The notes under the pieces are model-generated. The model was not told the origin of the DNA. It was given only the letters and a program-made list of their open reading frames with translations, and did not search any database. Shown here piece by piece: positions 5,770-6,673 of a DNA stretch of 64,000 nt. Numbering within the stretch: position 1 is the first letter of the stretch; each line of letters begins with the position of its first letter. The stretch is from Escherichia phage APCEc01. Position numbers and translations under genes: made by a program. Location of the stretch: sequence record NC_029091.1; one strand, 5' to 3'.

Positions 5770-5843
5770 GGCCCTGTAGCTCAATGGTTAGCAGCAGTCC
5801 CCTCATAAGGGAAAGGTTACCAGTTCGAATCTGGTCTGGGTCA
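5770..5843 (+). tRNA. tRNA with anticodon CAU (Met or Ile2/AUA-reading type)
   Basis: Hand fold: acceptor GGCCCTG/CTGGGTC (one U-U mismatch), T arm ACCAG-TTCGAAT-CTGGT, anticodon loop CTCATAA; no encoded CCA. Confidence 0.6.
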
Positions 5844-5849
5844 TATATT

Positions 5850-5926
5850 CGAGGCATAGCTCAATTGTATAGAGCAACGGACTTCTAATCCGTAGGTTGA
5901 AGGTTAGAATCCTTCTGTCTCGACCA
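5850..5926 (+). tRNA. tRNA-Arg (anticodon UCU)
   Basis: Hand fold: acceptor CGAGGCA/TGTCTCG, D stem GCTC/GAGC, anticodon stem ACGGA/TCCGT with loop CTTCTAA, T arm GAAGG-TTAGAAT-CCTTC, encoded CCA. Confidence 0.8.
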
Positions 5927-5944
5927 ACTTTAAGTGAGGAAAAT

Positions 5945-6289
5945 ATGAAAGGTAATATTTATCTGGTAGTTCATGATTTAACGTTTTATTTTAATGAACA
6001 GGATACAGTTATTTCCGACCGGTTGATTAATTCGTTATATCAACACGCTGATTACGTTTATTTCCAAAATGAATTTGGCCATTGGAAGTTTCTTAAAAAC
6101 CGTTCCGGGTTAACTAGTTTTGAATACTTTGACCGTAAAGACCTTTTAAACGAAATTCCATTACAACATCGGTTCCAGAAACGCGAATCACTATACTATT
6201 GTCGTCATATACCAAATGCTGAATGTGTTTATGAAGCGATTAATCTATGGCGTCGGCGTCGAGAGCAAATTGATGATATGCCAAAATAA
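5945..6289 (+). CDS. hypothetical protein
   Basis: ATG 5945 after GAGG, just downstream of tRNA-Arg; 114 aa. Track start 5897 lies inside the tRNA. Confidence 0.45.
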   Translation: MKGNIYLVVHDLTFYFNEQDTVISDRLINSLYQHADYVYFQNEFGHWKFLKNRSGLTSFEYFDRKDLLNEIPLQHRFQKRESLYYCRHIPNAECVYEAINLWRRRREQIDDMPK

Positions 6290-6457
6290 GAAGCCGGGTC
6301 GCTACCGGCAAGTCGTCGGACTGATGTTCCCTGAGTAAGGACTGGTCTTAATAAATCTTTACGATTTGTTAATATCCCCTTACATCACAGCAGAAACGGC
6401 GCACAGAATTATCGATTCGAGGAAATATCTTTGTCGTAAGCCGAGTAGCGTTTTTGA

Positions 6458-6549
6458 CGGAACGTTCGGATATGGTCGAGATATGGCCTTTTAAAAATAT
6501 TGAGTAGCGTCAACTGCTTAATAACCGGGTTCGAATCCCGGCGTTTCGT
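6458..6549 (+). ncRNA. tRNA-like element (possible degenerate tRNA or small stable RNA)
   Basis: Perfect T arm CCGGG-TTCGAAT-CCCGG followed by CGTTTCG that can pair with CGGAACG at 6458; D and anticodon arms do not fold canonically; lies in a 370-bp ORF-free stretch ending in a terminator. Confidence 0.25.
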
Positions 6550-6600
6550 ACAAACACTTGCCTTAGCAGGTGGAACCCCGACAAGGTTGCCGCAAGGCTT

Positions 6601-6630
6601 AGCCCCTTCCGAAAGGTCGGGGCTTTTTGG
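6601..6630 (+). terminator. rho-independent terminator
   Basis: AGCCCC-TTCCGAAAGGTC-GGGGCT hairpin with GAAA tetraloop core, then TTTTTGG. Confidence 0.7.
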
Positions 6631-6673
6631 CATAATAATAAATAGATAAGTTAATTAACTTAGGAAAAGCAAC

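Follow-up and report, generated by a model that had tools for sequence, protein, structure and literature searches.

The segment of the window described here (the window being the whole 64-kb stretch of phage DNA that was analysed) is very probably the 3′ end of a Mosigvirus tRNA operon. In this reading it is made of two tRNA genes, an inserted 114-aa ORF, orthologues of the T4 genes rnaD and rnaC, a trailer and an intrinsic terminator, and rnaC would be excised from the transcript in the manner of a tRNA. The features are, in order:

5770-5843, + strand: tRNA with anticodon CAU (ARAGORN; 54.0 bits with the Rfam tRNA model), CCA not encoded
5850-5926, + strand: tRNA-Arg(UCU) (ARAGORN; 71.1 bits with the Rfam tRNA model), CCA encoded
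5945-6289, + strand: 114-aa ORF between tRNA-Arg and rnaD, RB69ORF150c-like, phrog_3355 (function unknown)
6286-6405, + strand: orthologue of rnaD (species 2 RNA), aligned to the annotated rnaD of T4 and RB3
6412-6550, + strand: orthologue of rnaC (species 1 RNA), 139 nt, with 136 of the 139 bases identical to T4 rnaC
6553-6588, + strand: conserved trailer AACACUUGCCUUAGCAGGUGGAACCCCGACAAGGUU between rnaC and the terminator, with a 7-bp hairpin at 6555-6572
6602-6628, + strand: intrinsic terminator of the tRNA/small-RNA operon, stem GCCCCUUCC-GAAA-GGUCGGGGC followed by UUUUU

The rnaD and rnaC genes of the window are orthologous to those of T4, they are conserved, and both fold into structures supported by covariation. 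A preliminary description of this DNA had seen, downstream of the tRNA genes, either a decayed tRNA or a small stable RNA handled by tRNA enzymes. The notion of a stable RNA with tRNA-like processing features holds, and that of a tRNA decay product does not.

The 981-bp region shows no difference from phage vB_EcoM_SCS57, a Mosigvirus, over the 981 bases compared (100% identity), and identities of 95-99% with many RB69-like phages; by sequence, the source phage is a Mosigvirus, that is, an RB69-like phage of the T4 type. The stretch devoid of credible ORFs, 6290-6650, finds matches in 805 phage records belonging to many genera. It is 93% identical to T4, at DNA that the T4 record annotates as rnaC and rnaD: rnaD ('small, stable RNA; species 2 RNA') and rnaC ('species 1 RNA') stand there directly 3′ of tRNA-Arg. 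The matching DNA bears the same double annotation in RB3 and RB68; at this very place, both genes are named in the record of RB3, and rnaC in that of ATK47. The gene order of the window, with tRNA-Arg followed further on by rnaD, rnaC, the trailer and the terminator, is also that of T4, RB3 and ATK47, and the rnaC-rnaD pair is common to every close relative of T4 and RB69. The species 1 and species 2 RNAs of T4 have been known since the 1970s, and the two genes of the window are identified here as these already known small stable RNAs of T4-type phages. The small stable RNA reading was thus essentially right, the ORF-free stretch being the orthologue of T4 rnaD and rnaC, both annotated as stable RNAs. 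The single RNA that had been pictured there has, however, to be replaced by two.

Upstream of this pair, ARAGORN and Rfam find exactly the two tRNA genes that had been reported, tRNA-CAU and tRNA-Arg(UCU). No further tRNA was detected by ARAGORN in the 64-kb window, tmRNA search included, and no Rfam family other than tRNA reached its gathering score anywhere in the window. The homologous cluster of T4 does contain 8 tRNAs, as had been stated, and tRNA-CAU, with 1 base different from T4 tRNA-Ile(CAU), is the homologue of the latter. The tRNA set had been called reduced: this is correct when the two genes are compared with the eight of T4, but two is the usual state in Mosigvirus, and close relatives with tRNA annotation list the same two. 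In tRNA-Arg(UCU), the T loop reads UUAGAAU, with an A at the usual place of C56, and the D loop, CAAUUGUAUA, is without the usual GG, the score still being 71 bits. These two oddities may represent a compensated change of the elbow contact.

Inspection by eye revealed one candidate promoter, just upstream of the tRNA genes and overlapping the stop codon of the preceding ORF:

5683-5707, + strand: possible T4 middle-type promoter, with a MotA-box-like TGCTTTA at 5683-5689, a 12-nt spacer and TATTAT at 5702-5707

TGCTTTA was likened to the consensus of the MotA box. A sigma-70 scan returned sites no more numerous than expected by chance.

The 114-aa ORF that separates tRNA-Arg from rnaD is preceded by a Shine-Dalgarno sequence. 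No Pfam match was found for this ORF or for the other flanking ORFs, and the PHROG matches are to families of unknown function. The ORF is present at the same junction in other Mosigviruses and is not found there in T4 or RB3; VR7 has a different ORF at this place, of 184 aa (L020 473-1027). The tRNA-Arg/rnaD junction may be an insertion hot spot within the tRNA/small-RNA operon. The preliminary description had noted an ORF-free stretch of about 370 bp after the tRNA genes, which fits 6290-6650, but the 114-aa ORF that comes before it went unmentioned.

We now turn to rnaC, which is homologous to T4 rnaC over its full length and is located between rnaD and the operon terminator. Its score with the family covariance model R1 is 162 bits (E = 3.5e-39). 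R1 was built from homologues belonging to Tequatrovirus, Mosigvirus, Gaprivervirus, Kagamiyamavirus, Kanagawavirus, Karamvirus, Gelderlandvirus, Winklervirus, Moonvirus, Mosugukvirus and Marfavirus. Among 28 distinct sequences, 95.6% of the cells are paired in the consensus fold, compared to ∼39% when the 3′ partners are slid by 1-3 columns, these percentages being somewhat inflated by the fact that the alignment used for pair counting was fitted to R1. Compensatory double changes were found at 31 of the 47 pairs in the same 28 sequences, and none of 500 shuffles did as well. With an independent alignment made by MAFFT, RNAalifold reported such compensatory changes for 26 of 42 pairs. Two internal spacings are moreover constant across genera, one of 61-63 nt, corresponding to the long arm, and one of 46-49 nt, corresponding to the linker, the hairpin and the T arm.

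The consensus fold is built as follows. Its two extremities form the acceptor-like pairing that had been noticed earlier, 6413-6419 with 6542-6548, which is supported by covariation. It consists of C6413-G6548, G6414-C6547, A6415-U6546, two U-U mismatches, C6418-G6543 and G6419-C6542. Covariation, from A-U to G-C, is seen at the third pair, and in Pectobacterium phage PM2 both U-U mismatches are replaced by U-A pairs, which yields a fully paired 7-bp stem. Next come a long interrupted arm (6420-6489), an A-rich linker (6490-6497), a 10-bp hairpin (6498-6523) and, one nt further, the T arm (6525-6541); the molecule ends with a 3′ tail, U6549 A6550. The T arm is the perfect one already reported, CCGGG-UUCGAAU-CCCGG, and the acceptor stem runs directly into its 5-bp stem, as in tRNA. 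The lack of canonical D and anticodon arms was confirmed, ARAGORN being silent: their place is taken by the long arm (∼70 nt) and the 10-bp hairpin. No Rfam family was assigned to 6290-6650 at gathering or permissive thresholds, and the best match at permissive settings (E up to 10), over 6457-6549, is to tRNA-Sec, with 16.6 bits for a gathering score of 47. In short, rnaC is tRNA-like only in its acceptor/T-arm half.

The bases that follow the acceptor stem are U-ACA-A in most phages, U-CCA-A in the Marfavirus clade and U-CCA-U in PM2, which means that a discriminator-like base and a CCA are encoded in two lineages. The predicted fold contains a continuous helix of 7 + 5 bp (12 bp) and a single-stranded 3′ tail, on the pattern of a tRNA-like minihelix, and might be cut by RNase P. 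In the lineages of IME523 (L005 1498-1642) and LC53 (L021 1124-1268), the T loop UUCGAAU is changed to UGCAUGC or UGCAUCC, so the T loop need not be canonical in every case. All rnaC stems and the two loops described in the next paragraph are kept in these lineages.

Two loops of rnaC can pair with each other:

6454-6459, + strand: apical loop of the long arm, UUGACG, proposed kissing partner, exact complement of 6508-6513
6508-6513, + strand: loop of the 10-bp hairpin, CGUCAA, proposed kissing partner, exact complement of 6454-6459

The two hexamers are exact complements in 27 of the 28 sequences, and both are nearly invariant, even where the stems that support them have changed completely. 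For two specific hexamers, perfect complementarity is expected by chance in about 1 case out of 4096. In the Marfavirus clade (Klebsiella phage F48 and relatives), the loops are UUGGCG and CGCCAA, which corresponds to one compensatory double change, A-U to G-C. Only 4 bp of loop-loop pairing are left in PM2. Predicted energies of the loop-loop duplexes are −5.5 and −7.6 kcal/mol. Such complementary, co-changing loops suggest that a 6-bp kissing loop is formed in rnaC, on the basis of two nearly invariant hexamers and of a single independent covariation event. More distant homologues of rnaC were searched for beyond the enterobacterial T4-like phages, by IMG/VR pattern scans, in metagenome data, in bacterial and archaeal genomes, and by BLAST starting from Melville, F48 and PM2, and none was found; all matches of the scan of bacterial and archaeal genomes were due to chance. 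As no lineage outside the enterobacterial T4-like phages is available, the kissing loop rests on one compensatory event. We know of no earlier description of a kissing loop in rnaC.

The identification of rnaD follows from homology to T4 rnaD in both sequence (∼87% identity) and structure, and its score with model R2 is 156.6 bits. It folds into a hairpin near its 5′ end (6293-6309) and a long-range stem in which 6312-6318 pair with 6397-6404; these enclose conserved internal loops and a variable central/apical hairpin. Compensatory change was observed at 18 of 29 pairs, and 93.9% of the cells are paired, a percentage somewhat inflated here too, as the pair-count alignment was fitted to R2. 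Folding of the single sequence gave z = −3.8. Weak but consistent rnaD-like matches, of 23-38 bits with R2, were obtained directly after tRNA-Asn in Karamvirus and Marfavirus, and similar weak ones in Moonvirus. In age and distribution, rnaD thus extends beyond the T4 group, and it is not always placed beside rnaC. Several rnaD-like elements (L018 101-208, L022 133-242, L019 641-789) lie hundreds of bases away from rnaC, and that of F48 has a large insertion in the 5′ hairpin. In phage BW-1, the only mutation common to all lines adapted to host ECOR34 falls within rnaD (PMC12685909).

Could the stretch 6290-6650 be explained otherwise? It contains short ORFs only, of 40-74 aa. Two of them, of 42 aa (6366-6494, + strand) and 49 aa (6500-6649, + strand), overlie rnaD, rnaC and the terminator, and might be taken for genes encoding small proteins: they match phrog_24262 and phrog_28391 with E ∼1e-32, and many GenBank records report 'hypothetical protein (x2)' at this position. 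However, their frames are interrupted by stop codons in T4, Melville, VPA32, F48, VR7 and IME523, their start codon is absent in other genera although the DNA is conserved, and substitutions across the stretch are paired compensatory changes. The coding reading was rejected on account of these stops, missing starts and compensatory substitutions, and its probability is in our opinion minimal, in keeping with the earlier statement that no credible ORF is present. The best account of the families phrog_24262 and phrog_28391 is that conserved RNA genes have repeatedly been called as protein genes by mistake. Another possibility would be that rnaC is a functionless pseudogene, the remnant of a tRNA left behind by a shrinking T4-type tRNA cluster. 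Such a remnant might well look like rnaC, with its perfect T arm and acceptor-like stem and no D or anticodon arm, and the phage of the window has lost six of the eight T4 tRNAs; in the distant past, rnaC probably did descend from a tRNA gene. Yet the same element, 98% identical and with the annotation of a stable RNA, is present in T4, whose tRNA set is full, and compensatory changes are found in every helix of rnaC across many genera, with arm lengths constant. Covariation and constant arm lengths point to selection on the RNA structure rather than decay, and the absence of selective constraint that would characterise a tRNA pseudogene is not what was observed. Structured RNA is detected in the stretch by the covariance models R1 and R2, no Rfam family being matched there. 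The decayed tRNA of the preliminary description is ruled against by the 98% identity with T4, the 805 phage records and the abundance of compensatory changes in helices, and we regard it as most improbable.

At the opposite extreme, rnaC might be a genuine, very long tRNA, a tRNA-Met(CAU) of 95 nt spanning its 3′ two-thirds, which would be charged and used in translation. ARAGORN does call such a tRNA in Enterobacter phage UFV01 (L006 1551-1645), the records of PG7, id4496 and SonariX annotate a tRNA-Met at the same place, the weak tRNA-Sec match of Rfam mentioned above covers this part of the window, and an 8-bp pairing of ACGGAACG with CGUUUCGU is possible in the window. This acceptor pairing, 6457-6464 with 6542-6549, is nevertheless found in only 84% of the cells, which is no better than shuffles, and it is broken, with an A opposite a C, in EcS1, IME523 and others, whereas the competing stem between the 5′ and 3′ ends does covary. 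In addition, the proposed 'anticodon' falls within the variable linker, and ARAGORN makes no tRNA-Met call at rnaC in the window. The pairing on which the UFV01 call is based was rejected for lack of covariation support, and a translating tRNA is very hard to credit here. The tRNA-Met labels given to rnaC in UFV01, PG7, id4496 and SonariX are probably misannotations. We retain orthologues of two T4 stable RNAs as the explanation of the stretch.

Outside the T4 and RB69 groups, rnaC is situated within tRNA arrays, where it fills almost exactly a gap of ∼150 nt between tRNA genes:

EcS1: rnaC flanked by tRNA-Phe and tRNA-Trp
LC53: rnaC flanked by tRNA-Phe and tRNA-Trp
Melville: rnaC flanked by tRNA-Trp and tRNA-Gly
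VPA32: rnaC flanked by tRNA-Trp and tRNA-Gly
Pet-CM3-4: rnaC flanked by tRNA-Trp and tRNA-Gly

Judged by its position, rnaC acts as one more unit of the tRNA array. In Escherichia phage C6 (L008 1496-1725), rnaD, the trailer and the terminator have been kept and rnaC is gone (no match with R1), indicating that rnaC is dispensable in at least one lineage. When the window, T4, RB3, ATK47, VR7 and C6 are compared, the trailer varies only by one indel and by one substitution in the loop. Such conservation exceeds what a simple hairpin would call for, and may point to a processing site or to another RNA element. The strong terminator said to end the region is indeed present, as a GC-rich stem (6602-6623) followed by TTTTT (6624-6628), and its stem covaries in phage C6.

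Processing by RNase P and RNase III is part of the T4 literature of the 1970s-80s. With this background and the predicted structure in mind, the following scheme can be proposed. The rnaC RNA would be co-transcribed with the tRNAs and released on the 5′ side of its acceptor-like stem by RNase P, as for a tRNA, while its 3′ side would be trimmed by endo- and exonucleases; where no CCA is encoded, the host CCA-adding enzyme may act on it. The rnaD RNA would be freed once processing has occurred upstream of it and RNase P has cut at rnaC. If rnaC is excised in this tRNA style, its tRNA-like module would be a cassette for processing and stability, comparable to an engineered 'tRNA scaffold'. The body of rnaC, two arms presumably locked by the 6-bp kissing loop, would then be the functional part, and would most probably offer a binding surface for a protein recognising tRNA-like shapes.

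A bolder reading makes of rnaC an active tRNA mimic instead of a passive stable RNA. The acceptor/T-arm part, ending in a CCA (encoded or added), would be bound by a tRNA-recognising protein of the host or of the phage, the kissing-loop body would confer specificity, and the RNA would be a decoy or an adaptor affecting host range. Candidate partners are a tRNA-targeting defence nuclease, the CCA-adding enzyme, an aminoacyl-tRNA synthetase or EF-Tu. This would fit the mutation of the neighbouring rnaD found upon adaptation of BW-1 to ECOR34 (PMC12685909), but we consider it unlikely, though worth keeping in mind. In T4, these RNAs are classed as late and were validated by northern blot, with an RNAC probe (PMC9697503). 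Their function is called unknown (PMC9697503; PMC3014915), and the papers found from 2010, 2022 and 2025 agree on this point.

As a genome feature, the rnaC-rnaD locus is ordinary. Its annotation is less so: most GenBank records leave the stretch blank or fill it with false 'hypothetical proteins', and rnaC is mislabelled as tRNA-Met in some Enterobacter phages. What the present analysis adds is a covariation-supported fold, a candidate kissing loop, the CCA of two lineages, the wide distribution in tRNA arrays and the recognition of these annotation errors. What RNA C and RNA D do is a long-standing question, for which the comparative structure of rnaC, a covarying four-arm fold, offers concrete mutants.

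As in T4, rnaC of the window lies at the far end of the tRNA operon, preceded by rnaD and followed by the shared trailer and terminator, and its predicted structure is that of T4 rnaC. It differs by 3 substitutions, and the RNA pair is parted from tRNA-Arg by the 114-aa ORF, whereas the two are abutting in T4. Likewise, the 5′ hairpin, the long-range stem and the internal loops of T4 rnaD are kept in the window, but the central hairpin has diverged, with compensatory changes. In T4, a single base separates rnaD from tRNA-Arg, whereas the first bases of rnaD, as mapped in the window, take in the stop codon of the 114-aa ORF.

With canonical tRNAs, class II tRNAs included, rnaC shares a 7-bp acceptor stem continuous with a 5-bp T stem, and the UUCGAAU loop. 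One unpaired base follows the stem, as in a canonical tRNA, with a CCA encoded in two rnaC lineages, and the gene lies within tRNA arrays in other genera. The hairpin located one nt before the T arm stands where a class II tRNA has its long variable arm. Unlike a canonical tRNA, rnaC has neither D arm, anticodon arm nor anticodon, is 139 nt long, and is rejected by tRNA covariance models and by ARAGORN; with RF00005, no cloverleaf reached the gathering score in 6290-6650. It is not a tmRNA either: the ARAGORN tmRNA search and Rfam were negative, no sequence relationship was found, and rnaC is devoid of a tag ORF, of a pseudoknot series and of the G3-U70 pair (pair 3-70 being A-U or G-C). In the tRNA-like domain of tmRNA and in engineered 'tRNA scaffold' RNAs, the anticodon region is replaced by a foreign RNA body borne on an acceptor/T-arm module. 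By comparison, rnaC would share this carrier design, which gives tRNA-type processing and stability.
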